Notes: a model not told the origin generated them from the sequence alone. DNA of 64,000 bases from Catajapyx aquilonaris (GCA_000934665.2 KZ538349.1:1-64000); one strand, 5' to 3'; shown: positions 124 to 58,131, counted from the stretch's first letter. Numbers and translations are program-made.

Positions 124-327
124 ATGTGCAAAGTGCAAGTGCAATGTCGTATTTGGTCATTTTGTGAACTCCCCGGGTGGATTAGTCTAGCGGAAATTTC
201 CACCCGAGACGAAGCCAGAGATGGCCCAACTCTGCACGAGATGAAGGGGGGAACCCCGGGCTGGAATCGAACCCGGGACCTTAACATCCGTGGGCGTGTG
301 CGTTACCGCAGCACCACTCCGCCTCCC
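124..327 (-). mobile_element. tRNA-derived SINE family D, 3'-truncated copy
   Basis: Reverse complement matches the D copies at 28148, 38994 and 57322: head GGGAGGCGGAGTGGTGCTGCGGTAACGC...GGTTCGATTCC, then the structured core and GACATTGCAC. Confidence 0.85.
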
Positions 328-350: not shown

Positions 351-810
351 CCGAAGCAGTTTGGCGGAGTGGATAAGGTGTTCGACTGCTAATCGGGAGG
401 TCCTGGGTTCGAGTCCCGGGGCAGGCAATCCTAACCGTGGTTTTCTGTGGTTTCCCACGGTTCCCCCAGGATAATTCCGGGATTGCTTCCTAAAGTAATA
501 GGTCACAGCCGCTTCCTTACTTTCCGATCCTTGTCCCGTCCATGAGGAAGTGCGGTGTCGGTGGAAGTGCGGTGTCGGTGGGGGCTTTCTGACCCGCATC
601 TAGGGGATCATCTTGGCAAACGGGCCCCCTGAGGAACTGCACACGACCCCCAACTTGAGACATTGCACCTGCACCAGTGTACCCCCCTCATTATCCCTAT
701 CCTGTCCCCCTTGCACTGGAGGAAACATAGTACGAGAAAAGCGATGGTGGTGTACCACCCCCCAACCGGGCCTATACGTAGGCCTATCACGGGGTAAAAC
801 AAGAAAAATT
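351..810 (+). mobile_element. tRNA-derived SINE family A, long form
   Basis: A box TGGCGGAGTGG and B box GGTTCGAGTCC. Lm1/Talub-like block GGTTTTCTGTGGTTTCCC...GCCGCTTCCTT, structured core, tail GGCCTATCACGGGGT plus A-rich end. TSD ATTTATTATG(A/T)TGTA at 336-350 and 811-825. Confidence 0.9.
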
Positions 811-2036: not shown

Positions 2037-2728
2037 CAGTACCCTGCATTAATGGCTATGCACAGACATCGCCACCTGGCGGGATTGAGCGGAACTAGGC
2101 GTCGGTGGGCTGTGTCCAAAATACTTTGATCTCAAGACTGCTCACGAGACCGCTCTAGACGGCTCAAGATATCACGGTGGATTAACAGGCATTAGCTTGG
2201 TCCGTGTAATAACTGGTTCACAACCTCAGTACATTGATAGGAATCGCAATGGCCTTATAATTCATCCCACAGATATATCTGTGATCCATCAACCGAAGCA
2301 GTGGTGGCGGAGGGGATATGGTATCCGACTGCTAATCGGGAGGTCCTGGGTTCGATCCCCGGGGCCGGCAACCCTAACCGTGGTTTTCTGTGGTTTCCCA
2401 CGGTCCCTCCAAGTAAATGCCGGGGTTGTTTCCGAAAATAATAGGCCACAGCCGCTTCCTTCCGTCCCTATCCTAGTCCCAAAAGCGAAGTAAAAATGCA
2501 AAGAGAGAGTTCCAGTCAAAATAAAACTCCCCCCTAAAGAGTCGCAGGCTGATAATGGGGTATGATATGATATGATATTATATTATTATCTGTGATCCAT
2601 CTTTGTAGCAAGAGTTTGAATCCACCGCGATATCATGAAGTATTTTGGAAGCAGCCCACCGACGTTTAATTCCGCTCGTTCTTGGACAGGTGGCGATGTC
2701 TGTGCATAGCCATTAATGCAGGGTACTG
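2037..2728. mobile_element. Tc1/mariner-type MITE (TA TSD)
   Basis: About 42-bp perfect TIR CAGTACCCTGCATTAATGGCTATGCACAGACATCGCCACCTG, with TA on both sides. Confidence 0.85.
2291..2586 (+). mobile_element. SINE family A, short form (no structured core), inserted in the MITE
   Basis: Same head and Lm1-like block as the copy at 351. Tail CCCCCTAAAGAGTCGCAGGCTGATAATGGGGT plus (ATATG)n. 15-bp TSD TATCTGTGATCCATC at 2276-2290 and 2587-2601. Confidence 0.9.
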
Positions 2729-5047: not shown

Positions 5048-5647
5048 CAGTAAAACTTCTCTAAGTCGAATCTCCATGGGACCGGAAATAAACTTTGAGT
5101 TATAGAAGATTCGAGTTAAAGGAATTAGGGTTTTTTAAAGCACATAACTCTATAAGGAAGCCAACTTCATATCCAGTGACAAAAGGTGTTCAAAACTTAA
5201 AAATTACTGTCACTATCACACTTACATGTTCCTCGCTGTTTTGTTGTAAAAAAAATCTCTCTTATGGACATTAGCCTACTCTTAGATTCAAGGATTCAAT
5301 TGTCGCAATCGAGTCAAACACTTCTTTTGGTACGTCTGGTAGACGGAGATCAGAAAATTGAGCCTTTCTGTACATGTGGCCTACTCTCGACCCTTCGGCT
5401 GGGAAATGAGACAATTTTCCTTACTCGCCAACATGAACTTGGACTTAGGGAGAATGAAAATGCATTGATATCCCATCGTAAGGCCCTGCCTGCACTTCGA
5501 GTTATGGAGAACTTCGAGTTATAGACATTCGAGTTAGGAAAGTTTATTTCCTATTATTATTTTACATTGGGACCAACCAACTCATCATTTTCTTCGACTT
5601 ATAGAGAACTTAGACATAGGGAATTTCGACTTACGGAAGTTTTACTG
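5048..5647. mobile_element. pogo/Tigger-like MITE
   Basis: TIR CAGTAAAACTTC...GAAGTTTTACTG followed by TA. Multiple subterminal TTCGAGTTA/TTCGACTTA repeats. Confidence 0.75.
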
Positions 5648-6117
5648 TATTCAGTCGTTACATTCGAACAGTAACTCTAGCTTCAATAAGAAATATTAAC
5701 TGTTAATAGTAGGTTGAATGGATATATTATATTTTACTCGATACGATCTACGTACGCTCCGAATGCTGCAGCGTATTGATTGCATAGTAGGCCATATCCA
5801 TGGATTCATCGACTGTCCACATGTGCCAGTGGGTCAAAACTGGTCATTCTGGTGCATTAATTGCAATGCATGGCCCTCAGACATGCTTTCCATTCAGCCT
5901 ATTAGCAGCTAGCAGCTCACTGAAACGTAACTGTGAAAACAACGCAGCTAAATGCCAAAAAAACCGATAACTCTGGAAAGAACACACTATACAGTGGCCA
6001 GTATTCAAAATTTGTTTCCACTCGATCATTTCTGGCAATTCATTAACTAGTGTTCAGTTCGATATTACGAATTGTTCACCCTAGAAACGAGCTTAAAGTG
6101 AAAACAATCCAACGGAA

Positions 6118-12782: not shown

Positions 12783-12816
<34 letters not shown>

Positions 12817-13239
12817 CCCAAGAATTATTATTATTATTATACCCAAGAATTATTATTATTATTATACCCAAGAATTATTATTATTCTTCTTCTTCTTCTT
12901 CTTCTTCTTCTTCTTGGGTAGTGCCTGACCCTATATACGGTATGCGGCAAGGACCTTTATTGTAACTTGTAGTACATAGACCATATTTCTGGAAATGCCC
13001 GGGCCCACGGGCAGGATGACAGGAGGGGATGTGCAAGGTGCAGTGCAATGTCTTAAACGTGGCCATTTTTAGTGAACTCCCCCGGGTGGTTTAGTCTGTT
13101 GGAAATACCACCCGAGACGAAGCCAGAGGTGACCCTGAACTCTGCACGAGATGAAGGGGGTGTCCCCAGGCTGGGATGGAACCCGGGACCTTAACATCCG
13201 TGGGCGCATACGTTACCGCAGCACCACTCCGCCTCCCCT
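12783..13239 (-). mobile_element. SINE family D, full length, with (GAA)n/(TAA)n tail
   Basis: Head at 13239, structured core, tail ...GGCACTACCCAAGAAGAAG. TSD ATTTATAGGATAT at 12770-12782 and 13240-13252. Confidence 0.9.
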
Positions 13240-13309
13240 ATTTATAGGATATAATAATGATCGTATAATTCATCACTCTCAGATCCGATTTTGCTCTCAC
13301 ACTAAACAG

Positions 13310-16727: not shown

Positions 16728-17067
16728 GAGGAGGTGTAGATGGCCGAGATGGTAACGTCTCGGCTTGCTGAGTGAAAGGCCCGAGGTTCGATCCCCGCCT
16801 GGGAACTCCCTTTCGCCTGCGTCGAGAGGGTCTCTGACCCGCACCTTGGAGGTGTCTGGGAACCTAACCTCCTGGGGAACAACACATGACCCATTTACCG
16901 ACATTGCACATGCACCTACGTATGTTCCCTCCCCAAAAATCCCTATCCCTACCCTACATCCTTGACTCCTTGCACCGGAGAATGAAGTTAATATAGAAAA
17001 ATGGAGTAAAATGGTGGTATTCCACCCCCCTGAAAAGGCCTAGACGGCCTACCGGGATAAACAGAAA
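16728..17067 (+). mobile_element. tRNA-derived SINE family C
   Basis: A box TGGCCGAGATGG, B box GGTTCGATCCC, structured core, variant of the shared tail. TSD AAACACCC. Confidence 0.9.
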
Positions 17068-17114
17068 AAACACCCTGTACTGCACATGGTCGCGCGGCTC
17101 ATCTTATGCGTACA

Positions 17115-18044
17115 CTAGAAAAACCCTCGCTACGCTCGCATTTTTCTATGGCGCAGGCGTAGAAAACCACTCGCTTCGCTCGCTTTTTTCTAGTCCTACG
17201 GCCTACAGTGCCTGCCATATTTTTAATCGCTTCGGATTTATAGCCAATGATGATGCCCATCCCCCAACCATATGCATACACCCCCACCCGTTCCTCCGTG
17301 CGTTCACATGTCCGTGATTCTGTACCCTGCGACCAATCTGCAATCCCACCTTTGCTTTGCATTGGCTGGGAAATATGCATTTGCCCACTTCAACATACCA
17401 ATACCTTTTGAATTTTTAAAAACCCAAATTACTGTATGACCTGTACCGCTTCTACTCGCATGTACTCGCGCGCGTGTGTCTAAATTATATGCACACTTTC
17501 CGACCACGTTTTTCTAACTGCTCATAACTCCCCCCTATAAACGTCTATGGAAGTCTGCAGTGTTTGTATTAGATGATCCAAACACTGGTTTCATTCTTCC
17601 CGACACTTTCTTGTGGCGTTCTCGACCGTTCTCGACCTATCCCCGGGTTCAGTGTCCATGGAGTTGGCACCACTGATAAACACCATCCCGACCTAGCCTA
17701 TGTTCGGTTTGTTTGCGACGTTCCAATTCGGCCATTCCTCCTCTGCCCCCCCCCCNCTCCCCCCCCCCGTTGTGAGGTCACCGTGAAGACGTGGGTAGAG
17801 GAAGGTGGAAGGGTAGAAGGGTCTTCACGGGAGAGGAGATGTGTCCTCGTTGACGTCCAGCAAGCGACTGTGACGTTCTTCCACCCATTGCGCATGCTCG
17901 GAACGGGGGCCAATCGGAGGCGTCATGGTAACAATACATCCAGGTAACAATGGGCGGGGGCCAATCGGAACGTGGCGGTAACAACAATATGGGGGCGGAC
18001 CAATCAGAGGGCTTATACACACACCGCAAGCATTTTAATATACA
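17115..18044 (-). mobile_element. Candidate non-autonomous Helitron
   Basis: Minus strand ends GCGAGCGTAGCGAGGGTTTTTCTAG|T, a Helitron-like 3' end, with a second GCGAGCGAAGCGAG motif just upstream. Putative 5' start TGTATATTAAAATG is one change from TCTATA. No TSD. Confidence 0.45.
17890..18020 (+). promoter_or_regulatory. Cluster of three CCAAT boxes with GC boxes and GGTAAC (RFX half-site-like) motifs
   Basis: CCAATC at 17910, 17961 and 18000. GGGCGG at ~17952 and ~17993. CATGGTAAC and two further GGTAAC. Function is inferred only. Confidence 0.35.
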
Positions 18045-22375: not shown

Positions 22376-22606
22376 ACCGAAGCAGGTTGGCATAGTGGAT
22401 ATGGCGTCCGACTGCTAATCGGGAGGTCCTGGGTTCGAATCCCGGGGCCGGCAACCCTGACCGTGGTTTTCTGTGGTTTTCCACGGTCTTTCTAGGATAA
22501 TTCTGGGGTCGCTTCCGTATAATAGGCCACAGCCGCTTCCTTCCTTCCCTATCCCTGGAGGTTAAAAGGCAATGCTGGGCCAACCTCCTTAATATCAATA
22601 TTATAA
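22376..22606 (+). mobile_element. SINE family A with an alternative tail
   Basis: A head plus Lm1-like block, then hairpin GGAGGTT...AACCTCC and TTAA. TSD AGTAG(T/G)CAGGTAC at 22363-22375 and 22607-22619. Confidence 0.85.
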
Positions 22607-22948
22607 AGTAGGCAGGTACCTTATCCTCGAATTTTCCATGGTACGGAGCAATCATGGTCTTCTGACATCAACTTATATCAATTTGACGGAATGGCCTGCT
22701 GGTTAGGCTATCATACCAGAAATTGCGATAACATAAGAGCTGTCTAACCAGCAGGTTACTTCCAACAATTCGGGGGAATTAACCAAAAATTGAATTGCCG
22801 GTATTGGCCGACATACAAACCCCTGCGATAAAAATGGACGTACAGTATTTTGAAGGAATTGCACGACCCACCAATTACAGTACGAGTATAATGACCAAGT
22901 TGAATATGCTTTGAATTGCGCAGATGTGCTGGTATATCGATGAGAGGC

Positions 22949-23312
22949 GGGGAGGTGTGGTGGCCGAGATGGTAACGTCTCGGCTTGCTGAGCGAAAGGT
23001 CCCAGGTTCAATCCTCGCCTGGGATTTCCCTTCCACCTGCGTCGGGAGGGTCTCTGACCTGCACCAAGGAGGTGTCTGGCAACCTAACCTCCTGGGGGAC
23101 TACACATGGCCCAAACGTTTCAGACATTGCACCTGCACAGTGTCCCCTCCCCAACAATCCCTATCACTACCCCATTTCCCGAATTCATTGCACGGTGACT
23201 GAAGAAAAAATGACAAAATTATTCTAAATGGTGGTGATCCACCCTCCTATAAACCCTAATCGGATTATCACGGGGTAATAGAAATAAAAATAAAAATAAT
23301 ATAAATATAAAA
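22949..23312 (+). mobile_element. SINE family C
   Basis: Homologous to the copy at 16728. 13-bp TSD ATCGATGAGAGGC at 22936-22948 and 23313-23325. Confidence 0.92.
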
Positions 23313-23383
23313 ATCGATGAGAGGCTGCGCTTTTTAAGGGTCCGACATCTTGGATTTGAACCGAGGAAGAGAGTGCCGATTAT

Positions 23384-27780: not shown

Positions 27781-28147
27781 TATTTTGTGACGTGCTATTC
27801 TTGCAGAATAGTGAGAAATCGGACACTTTCCTCTACTCGCTCAGTGTTCGTGGGATACCGAATGTCTATATGGACCGAGATATCTTCTGCAAAGACGTTC
27901 TCTGTGCCAGGCAACACTCTTCGACATTAAATTCCACAATCTTATTTAATTTTTTCATGCCTAAATGTAGGTGTCTGTTTGTCCCCAGGCGGGACAAACG
28001 GACCGGCTTGCATTGTTTCAAAAAAAGCTTTATGTTGCTTCAACAACTAACACCAGTGTAACAACCAAGTAGGGGTAGATACTGCACATTCTAAGGTAAC
28101 TATACGACAGTCCAGTTGCAAAACCATGGCCACAAGAGCAATAATTT

Positions 28148-28470
28148 TAGGGGAGGCGGGAGTGGCGCAACGGTAACGTTCGCGCCCACGGATGTTAAGG
28201 TCCCGGGTTCGATCCCAACCCGGGGACCCCCCTTCATCTCGTGCAGAGTAATGTGTCTTCTCTGACTTCGTCTCGGGTGGAATATCCACAGACTAATCCA
28301 CCCGGGGGAGCTCACAAAACGACCACATGCGGACAAGGCACTGCACTTGCACATCCCCTCCTGGCATCCCTTCCTGCCCGTGGGCCCGGGCGCTGTATAA
28401 ATAGGATCCAATTGTATTCTGACGATTAATAAAGGTCCGGCAAGACCCCAATAGCCTATACCCAATTATT

Positions 28471-28511
<41 letters not shown>
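28148..28511 (+). mobile_element. SINE family D, full length
   Basis: B box GGTTCGATCCC, structured core, (ATT)n tail. 14-bp TSD AAGAGCAATAATTT at 28134-28147 and 28512-28525. Confidence 0.9.
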
Positions 28512-29216
28512 AAGAGCAATAATTTCCTTAAGGTGTCCGTTTGCCACACACTGACTGTATGCTTGATCACCAGAGTTAGGGCTGTATCTGCTAACTGGTG
28601 ATCTTTCTTTTTTGTAGGGCGATTTTTCCGCTTTCTTGTTCGCTGGTTGAGGACTTGAACCATCCCTTCCATGGCCGTGACTATTCAGAAGCGGTTCAGG
28701 CACTGTTAAACACGGCCAGGAGTCACTCATGAATATTGCCAGAAACTGTCCCCGTAACTTCAACAACAACTGCAGCAACTTGGAAGTAGCGAGCAGCAGT
28801 CACTTGAAACATGATAAGGTAGTTCACGAGAGGGGAAGACGCCCTCGAGACACGGTCAAGATGACGTAAGTACAACTCCGGCCGACTTCCTACTACGTTG
28901 GAGTATGTTGAGCGTAGCCAAGACGTCTTCGCGACCACTTCCAGACCGCCTCTGCCCCTCTCGTGTCAAACAAGTTACAAGCATTTAGGCACCATTGACT
29001 GCGTGTAGGATGTTTCCAACTGGACTTGTGTAGGTGAAACGCTTCGCTTTATAATATCGCGATATTTTTATGGCCATGCAGTATTTCTTTTGGTATGAGG
29101 ACGAATCGAAATGCCGATGGAATGGGAAGCTGTGCAACACCAACCCCAAATTGTACTGTATAGAACAGCCCAAGGACGCATTCATCCGTCTGGTCAGCGT
29201 CAGTATGGCCACGAAA

Positions 29217-29660
29217 TACTGAAGCAGTAGTGGTGGAGTGGATATGGTGTTCGACTGCTAATCGGGAGGTCCTGGGTTCGAGTCCCGGGGTCGGCAATCC
29301 TAACCGTGGTTTTCTGTGGTTTCCCACGGTCCCCCCCGGAGAATTCCGGGATTGCTTCCTAAATAATAGGCCACAGCCGATTCCTTCCTTTCCTATCCTT
29401 GTTCCGTCCATGAGGAGGTGCGGTGTCGGTGGGGGTTTTCTGACCCGCATTTAGGGGATCATCTTGGCAAACGGGCACACGACCCCCAACTTGAGACATT
29501 GCACCTGCACCAGTGTCCCNTCCCCCCCCCCCCCTCATTATCCCTATCCTGTCCCCTTGCACCGGAGGAAAGAAACATAGTACAAGAAAAGCGATGGTGG
29601 TGTACCACCCCCCAACAGGGCCTATGTAGGCCTATCACGGGGTAAAACTAATAATAAAAC

Positions 29661-31884: not shown

Positions 31885-32237
31885 AGGGGAGGTGTAGATG
31901 GCCGAGATGGTAACGTCTCGGCTTGCTGAGTGAAAGGCCCCAGGTTCGATCCCCGCCTGGGGAACTTTCCTTTCACCTGCGTCAGGAGGGTCTCTGACCT
32001 GCACCAAGGAGGTGTCTGGCAACCTAACCTCCTGGGGAACAGCACATGACCCCTTTACCGACATTGCACTTGGACCTATGTTCCCTCCCCAAAATCCCTA
32101 CCCCTACCCTACATCCTAGACTCCTTGCACCGGTGCATGAAGTTAAACGGAGAGAAAATGATGGTATCCCACCCCCTAAAAAGGCTAAGCCTTAGCACGG
32201 GGTAACGTAAAAAAATAAATAAATAAATAAATAAATA
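31885..32237 (+). mobile_element. SINE family C with (AAAT)n tail
   Basis: Homologous to the copies at 16728 and 22949. TSD approximately AAACT(C/T)CATA. Confidence 0.9.
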
Positions 32238-38946: not shown

Positions 38947-39387
38947 CAGGGTATTCCTGATTCGTGGGTCACTTTTTGATAACTGCTATCGGGTAGGGGA
39001 GACGGAGTGGCGCCGCGGTAACGCGCGCGCCCACGGAAGTTAAGGTCCCGGGTTCAATCCCCACCCGGGGTTCCCACCTTCTTTCGTGCAGAGTTGGGCC
39101 ATCTCTGGCTTCGTTTCGGGTGGCAATTTCCGGCAGACTAAGCCACCCGGGGGAGTTCACAAAATGACGATTAGAGACATTGCACTTGCACTTTGCACAT
39201 CCCCTCCCACCCACCCTTGGAGCATACTAATTAAGATTCTTCTTAAACTCGCTCCAAAAACAATTCCAAAGGTGGCAACCCACCCCCCCTAAGGAGTAGT
39301 ATAACTCCCCCCGTGGGGTAATGAAAAAAAACTGCTATCGGGCAATACCAGTTATCAAAAAGTGACCCACGAATCTGGAACACCCTG
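38947..39387. mobile_element. Tiny Tc1/mariner-type MITE (about 90 bp when empty) interrupted by a SINE
   Basis: TA-CAGGGTATTCCTGATTCGTGGGTCACTTTTTGATAACTG mirrored at 39348-39387, followed by TA. Confidence 0.85.
38994..39329 (+). mobile_element. SINE family D with a CCCC..GGGGT-type tail
   Basis: D head and core. 13-bp TSD AACTGCTATCGGG at 38981-38993 and 39330-39342. Confidence 0.9.
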
Positions 39388-42285: not shown

Positions 42286-43289
42286 TAGATACAGCGTATG
42301 ATTTCCACAGGCTTGCGTTTTGTGTGTGTGTTTTTTTTTGTTGAAAACTTGAATCTGGTCGATAATCCCTTTCACGGTGAGATCCCAAGTTCAATATTGC
42401 GCTAAAACACAGGCCCAGTCAAATCCCACCTGGATATAACGTCTGGCATGAGTGGGGGCCAGAGGGGCGGGGACTAAACAAGGTAAAAAAATCCTTCGGG
42501 TATATACTGTAGTCATTGTGGATCCAAAAGCGGTTGAAGCTCAACCTTCGGATCAATGAGACGCTTTTTCATTATGTATAACCCTGTCCTCCATGTAAAG
42601 CCCTGGGCCAATTCTTTCCGCTACGATAAGGCTGGAGCTGCAATAGCCCTCCACGTCGGGGATCTCCAAATGGTAACGACATAATCAATGGGTATAGTAT
42701 ATAAAATGCACTCTACATGAAACGGCATTGCTTTCGTGGGATACAAGCAGCCTAATAGGACAATAATTATTGTAATGATACAGACAATAATAATCAAGTA
42801 GAATAGGCGCAAAGTGAGCCTGGCTGCTTTGAATATCTGGAGAAAGAATGACTGTCGAGTATTGACAGGTTCAATTCCGAACGCCATTACAAGGCATGCT
42901 ACTTTGCTTCCCCCCCCCCTCTCCTGTCCCTCCTTCCCCATGGCCCGCCCGCCCCTGTTCTCTGCACGCACGCCACAATATGGTAGTCTAGGAAACGCTT
43001 ATACACACTTCTATTCCTCAGGTGTATTAATCATTACTAGGCTGCCTACATTCAAGGACGCTCTATTCCTCCTTAACTGATACATTTCGCCCTCTATGTC
43101 GCACACTTATTTACCCTAGGTAGCCTTGTTCTCACTGTGGACTGTGCCCTTTCTAATTATCGTATGTTGTCTCGCTCTGCTTACTTGCAAGTCGGGATAT
43201 GTATATTACTTTCAGAGTTCATCATTCCAGAAACACATTTCAGCATGCACTTTCAAGATGGGCTGAGGTGTACACTACTAAGTCCCCCT

Positions 43290-45755: not shown

Positions 45756-45983
45756 CGGGCAGGATGACAGGAGGGGATGTGCAAGGTGCAGTGCATCTGA
45801 CGCTGTGGCCATTTTTAGTGAACTCCCCCGGGTGGTTTAGTCTGTGGAAATACCACCCGAGACGAAGCCAGAGGTGACCCTGAACTCTGCACGAGATAAA
45901 GGGGGTGTCCCCGGGCTGGGATCGAACCCGGGACCTTAACATCCGTGGGCGCATACGTTACCGCAGCACCACTCCGCCTCTCC
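45756..45983 (-). mobile_element. SINE family D, tail missing
   Basis: Nearly identical to 13007-13238. Confidence 0.88.
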
Positions 45984-47422: not shown

Positions 47423-47708
47423 ACCGAAGCGGGTTGGTGTAGTGGATATGGAGTCCGCCTGCTAATCGGGAGGTCCTGGGTTCGAATCCCGGGGCCGGCA
47501 ATCCTGACCGTGGTTTTCTGCGGTTTTCCACGGTCCTCCCAGGATAATTCCGGGGTAGTTTCCGTAAAAACAGGCCAAAGCCGCTTCTTTACGTCCCTAC
47601 CCTATCCCAAAAAGCAAATAAAATGAAAGCAAAGAGTTCCAGTCAAACCAAATTTCCCCCCTAAGGAGCCGCGGCTGATAACGGGGTATGAATTATGAAT
47701 TATTTTAT
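47423..47708 (+). mobile_element. SINE family A, short form
   Basis: Homologous to 2291-2586. TSD TTAAAACTTTC. Confidence 0.9.
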
Positions 47709-57321: not shown

Positions 57322-57618
57322 GGGGAGACGGAGTGGCGCTGCGGCAACGTAAGCTCCCACGGATGTTAAAGTTCCGGGTTCTAACCCAACCCGGGGATAC
57401 CCCCTTCATCTTATGCAGAGTTCTCGGGTCGTCTCTGGCTTCGTTTCGGGTGATATTTCCGACAGACTAAGTCACCCAGGGGAGCTCACAAAATGACCGT
57501 CTTAGTCGATGCACTGCACCTTGCCCTAAGTTTCTATCGGACTTTAATCGATGGCGTATAGGAGCAATGGCTCTCCCGGAATACCCCGTAGGGGTGGCAA
57601 GGGGTATTACAAATAAAA
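57322..57618 (+). mobile_element. SINE family D with a fourth tail type
   Basis: D head and core. TSD AGGATGAATTG at 57311-57321 and 57619-57629. Confidence 0.88.
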
Positions 57619-57848: not shown

Positions 57849-58131
57849 AAGGGGAGCATGGTGGTCTAGTGGCTATGCTACTGGCCAGCCAAGCGGGAGG
57901 TTCGGGGTTCAAATCCCGTCCCCGTCACCTCTGCTTGGTCTGGTATTTTTCCGCTTTTCACCCGACATGTCCGGGCAGAATTGCACTCCCTTCTCTGCTC
58001 AGGGCCAAGAGAAAAGGTCAGGTATTTAAGAGGGTCAGAAATGACTACTTAGAGCGCCCTCCCTTGGGAACCTCCCCTTCCCCCCTAAGAGGGCCCTGGC
58101 CCCATCACGGGGTATTAAAAACAAAACAAAC
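57849..58131 (+). mobile_element. tRNA-derived SINE family E (single copy)
   Basis: A box TGGTCTAGTGG, B box GGTTCAAATCC, shared tail CCCCTAAGAGGGCC..GGCCCCATCACGGGGT. 17-bp TSD AACATTGTTAACTACTG. Confidence 0.88.

Follow-up and report, generated by a model that had tools for sequence, protein, structure and literature searches.

Background

Among short interspersed nuclear elements (SINEs), families can have a common central domain between exchanged heads and tails, and nine to ten such domains are listed in the parts consulted of three reports (PMC5804259, PMC4758252, PMC4824008). Vhc, a stem-loop found in mollusc and arthropod V-SINEs (Matetovici et al. 2016, PMC4758252), is one of two for which the consulted parts predict conserved hairpins, the other being Inv (PMC4758252, PMC5804259). 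The roles proposed there for central domains are tail exchange, a recombination hotspot and a host function, and why they persist is treated as an open question in transposon biology (PMC5804259; PMC4758252). Here, we analyze a stretch of 64,000 nucleotides from Catajapyx aquilonaris (GCA_000934665.2 KZ538349.1:1-64000; hereafter the window), in which one RNA module recurs inside three SINE families, A-long, C and D. We read this module, with a probability of roughly 0.6, as a SINE central domain with one selected hairpin (hairpin 2), moved between families by recombination. The window is a small, clean example, from one genome, of a compensated stem in a common SINE body with exchange breakpoints flanking the domain.

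The 3′ tails of stringent-type long interspersed nuclear elements (LINEs) and SINEs are stem-loops recognised by the LINE reverse transcriptase (RT), as in UnaL2 and UnaSINE1 of the eel. Ribozymes of the hepatitis delta virus (HDV)-like kind fold as a nested double pseudoknot, in which P3 and L3 lie between the 5′ strand of P2 and the 3′ strand of P1. For the recognition of LINE and SINE tails, the consulted part of PMC4824008 cites Kajikawa and Okada (2002), and HDV-like ribozymes occur in retrotransposons and their non-autonomous derivatives, for example in the Pr77 region of L1Tc/ingi, according to the consulted part of PMC4035085.

Results

The window is non-coding eukaryotic DNA of 40–47% G+C, rich in tRNA-type SINEs, and no recognisable coding exon was found in its 64 kb. 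An initial annotation had placed 11 copies of a pseudoknot-like RNA module in these elements, and all 11 were confirmed in position and strand: an nhmmer profile built from them recovered 11/11 in the window (E 1e-34 to 1.5e-20), where no further copy was found, the next nhmmer matches having an E of at least 5. The module is about 100 nt long, and its copies are the following.

566..674, + strand: module copy A1, family A-long (nhmmer E 1e-26)
29417..29510, + strand: module copy A2, family A-long, without 15 nt that include the 3′ strand of hairpin 2
16816..16915, + strand: module copy C1 (blastn, nhmmer)
23036..23138, + strand: module copy C2, in an element at about 22948–23312 with a 13-nt target-site duplication
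31976..32075, + strand: module copy C3 (blastn, nhmmer)
124..240, − strand: module copy D1 (blastn, nhmmer)
13037..13150, − strand: module copy D2, in an element at about 12783–13243 with a 13-nt target-site duplication
28240..28352, + strand: module copy D3, in an element at about 28147–28511 with a 14-nt target-site duplication
39085..39198, + strand: module copy D4, in an element at about 38994–39329 with a 13-nt target-site duplication
45780..45895, − strand: module copy D5 (blastn, nhmmer)
57412..57525, + strand: module copy D6 (blastn, nhmmer)

In all 11 copies the same order of parts was legible, namely hairpin 1, hairpin 2, a linker ending in CAC, a C-rich strand and the 3′ motif GACATTGCAC(N)TGCAC. 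In exact form, this motif is present seven times in the window against 0.00 expected, with variant forms in C3, D3, D5 and D6, and it is identical across families despite diverged adjoining sequence. Outside hairpin 2, conservation at the sequence level extends to TCTCTGRC, the GGGGA..YCAC linker, ATGRCC and GACATTGCAC/TGCAC. The initial annotation was right about this common architecture, but the likeness is one of sequence homology as well as of structure: the module is homologous in sequence across A-long, C and D, with 72.6% identity between A1 and C2 over 95 nt (blastn, E 7e-10) and 75.9% between D2 and C2 over 58 nt (blastn). Homology also runs past the module on either side, since A-long and C have about 215 nt of module and tail in common at 64–66% (A1 254–469 against C1–C3, E 6e-13 to 6e-16), and C and D have head and module in common at 64–65% over 212–221 nt (D2 against C2 and C3). 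The parts are laid out in copy A1 as follows.

568..578, + strand: 5′ arm TGCGGTGTCGG, with alternative partners at 589–598 (hairpin 1) or in the 3′ motif at 659–668
579..588, + strand: "loop" TGGGGGCTTT, whose G run is complementary to 647–651 (duplex −12.6 kcal/mol, shuffle p 0.058)
589..598, + strand: 3′ strand of hairpin 1, CTGACCCGCA, whose core CTGRC is invariant in 11/11 copies of the alignment
602..630, + strand: hairpin 2, in which AGGGG (602–606) pairs with CCCCT (626–630)
631..642, + strand: linker GAGGAACTGCAC, ending in a CAC that is invariant in the alignment columns
645..651, + strand: downstream strand GACCCCC
659..674, + strand: 3′ motif GACATTGCACCTGCAC, with two tandem NTGCAC units
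676..810, + strand: spacer and 3′ tail, shared with family C, with a 10-nt target-site duplication
746..800: tail parts, namely a GGTGGT..ACCACC hairpin (746–759), a C run, a GGCCTA-TACG-TAGGCC hairpin (769–784) and CACGGGGTAAAAC (788–800)

Tandem NTGCAC units number three in D1 (133-115, −) and D4 (39176–39205, +) and two in A and C, and a 17-nt tandem duplication in A1 (546–562 and 563–579, +) doubles the 5′ arm of its module.

Hairpin 2 is demonstrably a real covarying stem under selection for RNA pairing, and the pairings that had been quoted for it were right. In a MAFFT alignment (columns 35–44 against 62–71, 95 cells, 500 shuffles), 93.7% of the cells were paired, compared with 30.6–64.2% when the 3′ partner was slid by 1–3 columns. 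Two-sided changes were found in 4/10 pairs (12 cells), and none of the 500 shuffles matched the percentage paired, the number of two-sided cells or the covariation score. One position exchanges U-A, A-U and G-C, and the apical pair takes the forms A-U, U-A, C-G or U-G within family D alone. Local folds gave stems of 9–14 bp at −12 to −20 kcal/mol in 10/11 copies, closed by a pyrimidine run that pairs with GGGG(A); the remaining copy, A2, lacks the 3′ strand. The sole mismatch of hairpin 2 in A1, A607, is specific to that copy, and most contigs from the DNA runs read G there, giving a sixth pair. The 15-nt deletion in A2 lies opposite A1 625–639 and removes part of the linker together with the 3′ strand.

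The families differ in what surrounds the module. A-short elements, listed below, have the head and body of A-long, and A-long diverges from them just 5′ of the module.

2292..2480, + strand: A-short copy with A-long head and body, no module and its own tail of the same class
22376..22557, + strand: A-short copy, no module, with tRNA predictions on its head
47423..47603, + strand: A-short copy, no module, with an ARAGORN tRNA prediction

The heads of A-long differ from those of C and D, and the D copies have a common head and module followed by at least two tail types, which split 10–20 nt 3′ of the TGCAC repeats; the same internal domain is thus found with different heads or different tails. 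A-long, C, D1, D4 and A-short nevertheless have tails of one class, in which a C run is followed by a hairpin that varies in sequence, by ACGGGGTA and by a simple repeat. The idea that heads and tails differ was thus right only in part: it fits the A-long heads and the D tail types, but A-long and C tails align, as do C and D heads. A-long consists of the 5′ part of A-short and a C-like module and tail, with breakpoints that flank the module. Taken together, homology and the points of divergence give a minimal history of a C/D module lineage, an A-long chimera and tail swaps in D. The proposal that the module was exchanged between SINEs is borne out for A-long, and in D tails were swapped downstream of it.

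Several further observations concern the tails. A GGTGG..CCACC hairpin stands before the C run in A1 (746–800), A2, C1–C3, D1, D4 and the A-short tails at 2480–2590 and 47603–47700. The second tail hairpin is wholly different in sequence between copies and retains its pairing; it looks like a LINE RT-recognition stem-loop. At 537, a small number of contigs (5 in run X1) depart from the A body and pass directly into a GGTGGT..CCACCCCCC tail, which indicates family A variants with an A/C-type tail and no module.

The A, C and D elements are real multi-copy retroposed SINEs. The B-box-like motif GGTTCNANYCC has 17 sites in the window against 0.98 expected and is present in 13/14 A, C and D copies. 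Family A heads matched the Rfam tRNA model at 22382 (37.1 bits) and at 362–419 (27.3 bits), with ARAGORN predictions in two copies, and the C1 and D2 heads gave no Rfam tRNA match at E ≤ 10. In 6/10 elements examined, the flanks share words of 9–14 nt (four of them 13–14 nt long, that of A1 10 nt and that of D5 9 nt), which we read as target-site duplications, and (AAT)n, (AAG)n and (AAATA)n simple repeats are visible at the 3′ ends. Positions 1–1100 of the window matched 5,206–6,037 contig pieces per DNA run at a likeness of at least 80%, a depth that is not equal to copy number and does not rank module-bearing against module-less forms. The runs listed for the organism comprise four DNA runs of one sample and one small run of unspecified kind, and no RNA run.

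If the module is a central domain of this kind, families C and D would have it by descent, and in A-long the 5′ part of A-short would have been joined to the C-like module and tail, the most likely cause being a template switch or recombination of SINE RNAs while they were reverse-transcribed. Function and the long-range fold that forms are both matters of inference: the domain may act in cis on the polymerase III transcript of the SINE as a compact, independently folding unit, and that it could aid RNA stability or the formation of a ribonucleoprotein in master copies. Its homology between families and its stable structure might also make it a crossover point for the exchange of heads and tails. 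Recruitment of the RT by the module, which the initial annotation had considered, is unlikely. The module ends 130–250 nt upstream of the simple repeat, and the place just before the repeat is taken by a separate terminal hairpin. Given that the elements have this stem-loop tail of their own and that the module is missing from A-short, the RT-recognition tail is something other than the module.

Alternative readings

The initial annotation had combined hairpin 1, hairpin 2 and a pairing of hairpin 1's loop with the C-rich strand further downstream into a selected, pseudoknot-like fold. This model gives an H-type pseudoknot and would leave GACATTGCAC/TGCAC single-stranded as a recognition site. 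We consider it unlikely, although part of the evidence speaks for it. Hairpin 1 is complementary in every family (5–7 pairs, counted from fixed anchors) and strong in family A: the 5′ arm of A1 forms a duplex of −14.9 kcal/mol with the 3′ strand of hairpin 1 (shuffle p 0.003; 0.001–0.003 in A). A loop–downstream duplex of at least 5 bp is possible in 9/11 copies. Compared with 1,000 shuffles, its free-register duplex energies gave the p values below, with the provisos that copies within a family depend on one another and that the initial annotation had already pointed to the region when it was picked.

A copies: A1 0.058, A2 0.004
C copies: C1 0.002, C2 0.014, C3 0.011
D copies: D1 0.072, D2 0.11, D3 0.20, D4 0.87, D5 0.21, D6 0.045

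The duplex thus beats shuffles in A2, C1, C2, C3 and D6 but is weak by this measure in D3, D4 and D5. In the alignment (MAFFT columns 19–23 and 85–89), the loop–downstream helix was 76.4% paired against 25.5–49.1% when slid, with two-sided change in 3/5 pairs and a covariation score that 0/500 shuffles reached. This covariation is real support for some long-range contact, and it is compatible with the pseudoknot and with the nested fold described below alike.

However, the two-sided changes of this helix all lie on a single A/C-versus-D split and hinge on MAFFT placing CCAT/TCAC of the longer D loop under GGGT of A and C, and no two-sided change was found within any one family. The claim that loop and downstream strand change together is borne out by partner swaps in A1, A2, C1, C2 and D3, where the cognate strand was the best partner, but not in D1, D2, D4, D5 and D6, for which 7–9 of 9–10 foreign partners equalled or beat the cognate. 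Changes in D are uncompensated: D1 and D4 have a GGGCC loop opposite GACC or GACG (a C-A mismatch), and the matching GGCC stands in D2 and D5, each with a GGGTC loop. The GGGTC of family C is not free as a loop, since it overlaps what may be a stem with a loop of 3 nt and is also able to pair with the adjoining GACC; a loop of 5–6 nt wholly used by the pseudoknot helix would moreover be sterically strained. Differences in hairpin 1 between families are all one-sided (U-A/U-G, G-U/A-U), with no compensatory change, and hairpin 1 appears in 0/11 minimum free energy (MFE) folds from RNAfold and not in the RNAalifold consensus. Since a pseudoknot needs hairpin 1 and the loop–downstream helix at once and hairpin 1 is uncompensated, the pseudoknot as such is not supported. 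The selected RNA fold that had been proposed stands for hairpin 2, with compensatory changes between and within families, whereas some long-range contact may exist and the pseudoknot is unsupported.

As part of our own reading, one long nested helix would account for the same complementarity, and on this model the pseudoknot is not needed. The 5′ arm (TGC..GTC) has either the nearby GAC..GCA of hairpin 1 or the distal GAC-ATT-GCA of the 3′ motif as partner. With the latter it forms 10 contiguous bp in A, 6+4 bp around an A-A mismatch in D and 3+4 bp around an ATT bulge in C; this helix is prolonged by the G-rich "loop" and the C-rich strand downstream, and hairpin 2 stands at its tip. In A1 the pairing with the 3′ motif is worth −12.8 kcal/mol (p 0.046), and the MFE fold takes it. 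At least four pairs between the 5′ arm and the 3′ motif are present in 10/11 MFE folds, the loop–downstream helix is present as a nested helix in 6/11, and RNAalifold, given the 11 sequences, returns TGCR with YGCA, a mid helix and hairpin 2. Forcing hairpin 1 costs 1.2–16.7 kcal/mol, a figure that includes neither credit nor penalty for a pseudoknot helix. In D the 5′ arm favours the 3′ motif (p 0.007–0.051) over the hairpin 1 strand (p 0.10–0.21). The helix between the 5′ arm and the 3′ motif has three invariant pairs, two with one-sided changes and none with two-sided change; hence the nested helix is not proven either, and the data fit both folds.

Besides the loop–downstream covariation, several results weigh against our reading of the module as a central domain with one selected hairpin. 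The 11 copies, all from one window, represent about three families and four D sub-lineages, so that nearly every "event" is one split. The folding energy of the module as a whole is unexceptional, with z-scores that range from −4.32 to +1.03 and reach −1.9 or lower in 5/11 copies only. The 5′ arm of A and C favours its hairpin 1 partner (shuffle p 0.001–0.21, against 0.034–0.85 for the 3′ motif), and the TCTCTGRC strand, although highly conserved, stays unpaired in the nested fold. Finally, the window yielded no partner LINE: by Pfam, no RT or endonuclease domain was found in 114 of the 171 open reading frames (ORFs) of at least 75 aa, taken from the first 150 of them and clear of the SINE copies.

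This last result also bears on the idea that a fragment of the partner LINE, from its 5′ or 3′ untranslated region, was captured in the SINE body as the module, the hairpin being a cis element of the LINE. There is precedent, in that the 5′ parts of RTE and Vingi LINEs are reported to have contributed middle parts of SINEs (Kojima 2018, in the consulted part of PMC5786205), and the module travels with a LINE-type tail in A-long and C. Nevertheless, the profile found the 11 SINE copies only and no module-bearing LINE in the window, and the D module occurs on at least two different tails. We regard such an origin as improbable.

It is conceivable, if rather improbable, that the domain is a bistable RNA, in which two conserved partners compete for the 5′ arm (TGC..GTC..GGG), each excluding the other. 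One state would comprise hairpin 1 and the pseudoknot, formed through the proximal GAC..GCA, and the other the nested helix, formed through the distal CCC..GAC-ATT-GCA. If this is true, bistable switching could be part of the SINE life cycle, between a compact form for storage or export and an open form for reverse transcription or template switching, and the domain would represent a type of structured retroelement module as yet undescribed for SINE bodies.

Absence of any selection on the module, with recent common ancestry explaining its likeness and with structures such as any GC-rich 100-mer would form, is very improbable. It fits the z-scores of 6/11 modules (between −1.1 and +1.0) and the absence of two-sided change from most helices besides hairpin 2. 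Against it, hairpin 2 keeps its pairing through A-U, U-A, G-C and C-G exchanges at 4/10 positions in families that are about 65–75% identical, and also within D, and between families the 3′ motif stays the same although the sequence beside it has diverged.

No RNA class described in Rfam accounts for the module. At gathering score, no Rfam family was found in it, and the window yielded only the tRNA at 22382; at E ≤ 10, three scans of small regions with lax filters found no ribozyme, hammerhead, twister, pistol, hatchet, exonuclease-resistant RNA (xrRNA), 5S, 7SL or small nuclear RNA in the module, and inside modules only the hairpin 2 that D2 carries gave a match, to the miRNA model mir-35_2 (14.2 bits, E 4.5), at chance level. 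The self-cleaving ribozyme or exonuclease block that the initial annotation had ventured, or an HDV-like ribozyme or other known structured RNA in particular, is therefore barely credible: the order of strands superficially recalls P1/P2/P4, and HDV-like ribozymes do occur in retroelements, but the module has no Rfam match at E ≤ 10, hairpin 1 encloses a loop (5–14 nt) too short to take a P2 strand together with a P3 stem and L3, and cleavage downstream of the tRNA head would sever the head that bears the promoter. We also weighed a tRNA-like module, with an acceptor-like closing stem and a D-loop/T-loop-like GGG:CCC contact, and gave it up, as the module is detected neither by ARAGORN nor by the tRNA model of Rfam.

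Other features of the window

Four extra B-box-like sites lie outside families A, C and D, at 23352–23362 (−), 28651–28661 (−), 42868–42878 (+) and 57906–57916 (+), and suggest that the window contains more SINE families. D1 (119–344, −) and A1 (349–810, +) stand head to head, about 4 nt apart; either one was inserted beside the other, or the site is a preferred target. An ORF at 17102–17389 (−) matched the Pfam family KH_2 with 19.6 bits against a cut-off of 22 and had no PDB relative at E ≤ 0.01, and it is probably spurious.

Relatives of the module and of the family A body

We searched other collections for relatives of the module. A metagenome scan for GACATTGCAC(N)TGCAC returned, among the matches listed, 0/119 that were SINE-like beyond the motif, and the same motif in viral contigs gave 119 loci, none convincing, with a single 46-nt match of 78% (E 2.9e-4) that we took as chance. 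A 20-mer of family D gave two loci in genome contigs, neither alike beyond the 20-mer, and none in viral contigs. Module 7–9-mers were absent from the readable supplements of PMC9191728 (cockroach and termite; Sbg1-9, Talua-d) and PMC11481361 (bivalve highly conserved domains, HCDs), in which line breaks of the PDF may hide matches. The papers searched yielded no description of such a module under the motif string or under SINE "pseudoknot". As no relative was found in these collections, the cross-taxon conservation that defines an HCD is unshown.

The Vhc block of 37–39 bp is absent from the module, and by eye the module did not resemble the consensuses of Empusa and Thermobia in supplement 4 of PMC4758252. 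The pattern GGTTTTCT..GGTTTYCC occurs at five places in the window, all in family A bodies and in 0/11 modules. In the form GGTTTTCT-GY-GGTTTYCC it lies just past the tRNA head in 5/5 family A copies (439–456, 2382–2399, 22465–22482, 29308–29325 and 47512–47529, all +). Compared by eye with the consulted part of the same supplement, this block is a shortened Vhc block of mantis and firebrat V-SINEs, and family A may accordingly be a V/Vhc-type SINE; the likeness of its body to Vhc SINEs of insects and other arthropods is a lead only.

Comparison with known systems

Like HDV-like ribozymes, the module is an RNA module common to autonomous or non-autonomous retroelements, in which a strand within a loop pairs past a second hairpin. 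Unlike them, it has neither P3/L3 nor an Rfam match at E ≤ 10, and it lies inside the element and not at its 5′ end. With the stem-loops of LINE and SINE 3′ tails it has in common that it belongs to a LINE-dependent element and that the sequence of hairpin 2 drifts as compensatory changes keep its pairing. Hairpin 2 differs from them in being internal, 150–250 nt from the 3′ end, in elements that have a terminal hairpin, a ACGGGGTA tail and simple repeats of their own, and the module is absent from A-short copies, which are nonetheless retroposed.

The central domains of SINEs come closer. Like Vhc, the module contains a short conserved hairpin inside the bodies of invertebrate tRNA-derived SINEs, whereas neither in sequence nor in hairpin 2 is it related to the Vhc block. 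In family A, a shortened Vhc-like block sits upstream of the module. In contrast to HCD superfamilies, the sharing is seen within one genome only, and, Vhc excepted, the module is set beside the named domains, namely CORE, Nin/Deu/Inv, Pln, Meta, Ceph, MESC and Snail, by description. As in those superfamilies, one internal domain occurs across SINE families of a single genome, with differing heads or tails and with breakpoints that flank the domain. As it stands, the module is an ordinary SINE superfamily domain and not a new RNA class, possibly a new member of the known kind represented by SINE central domains.

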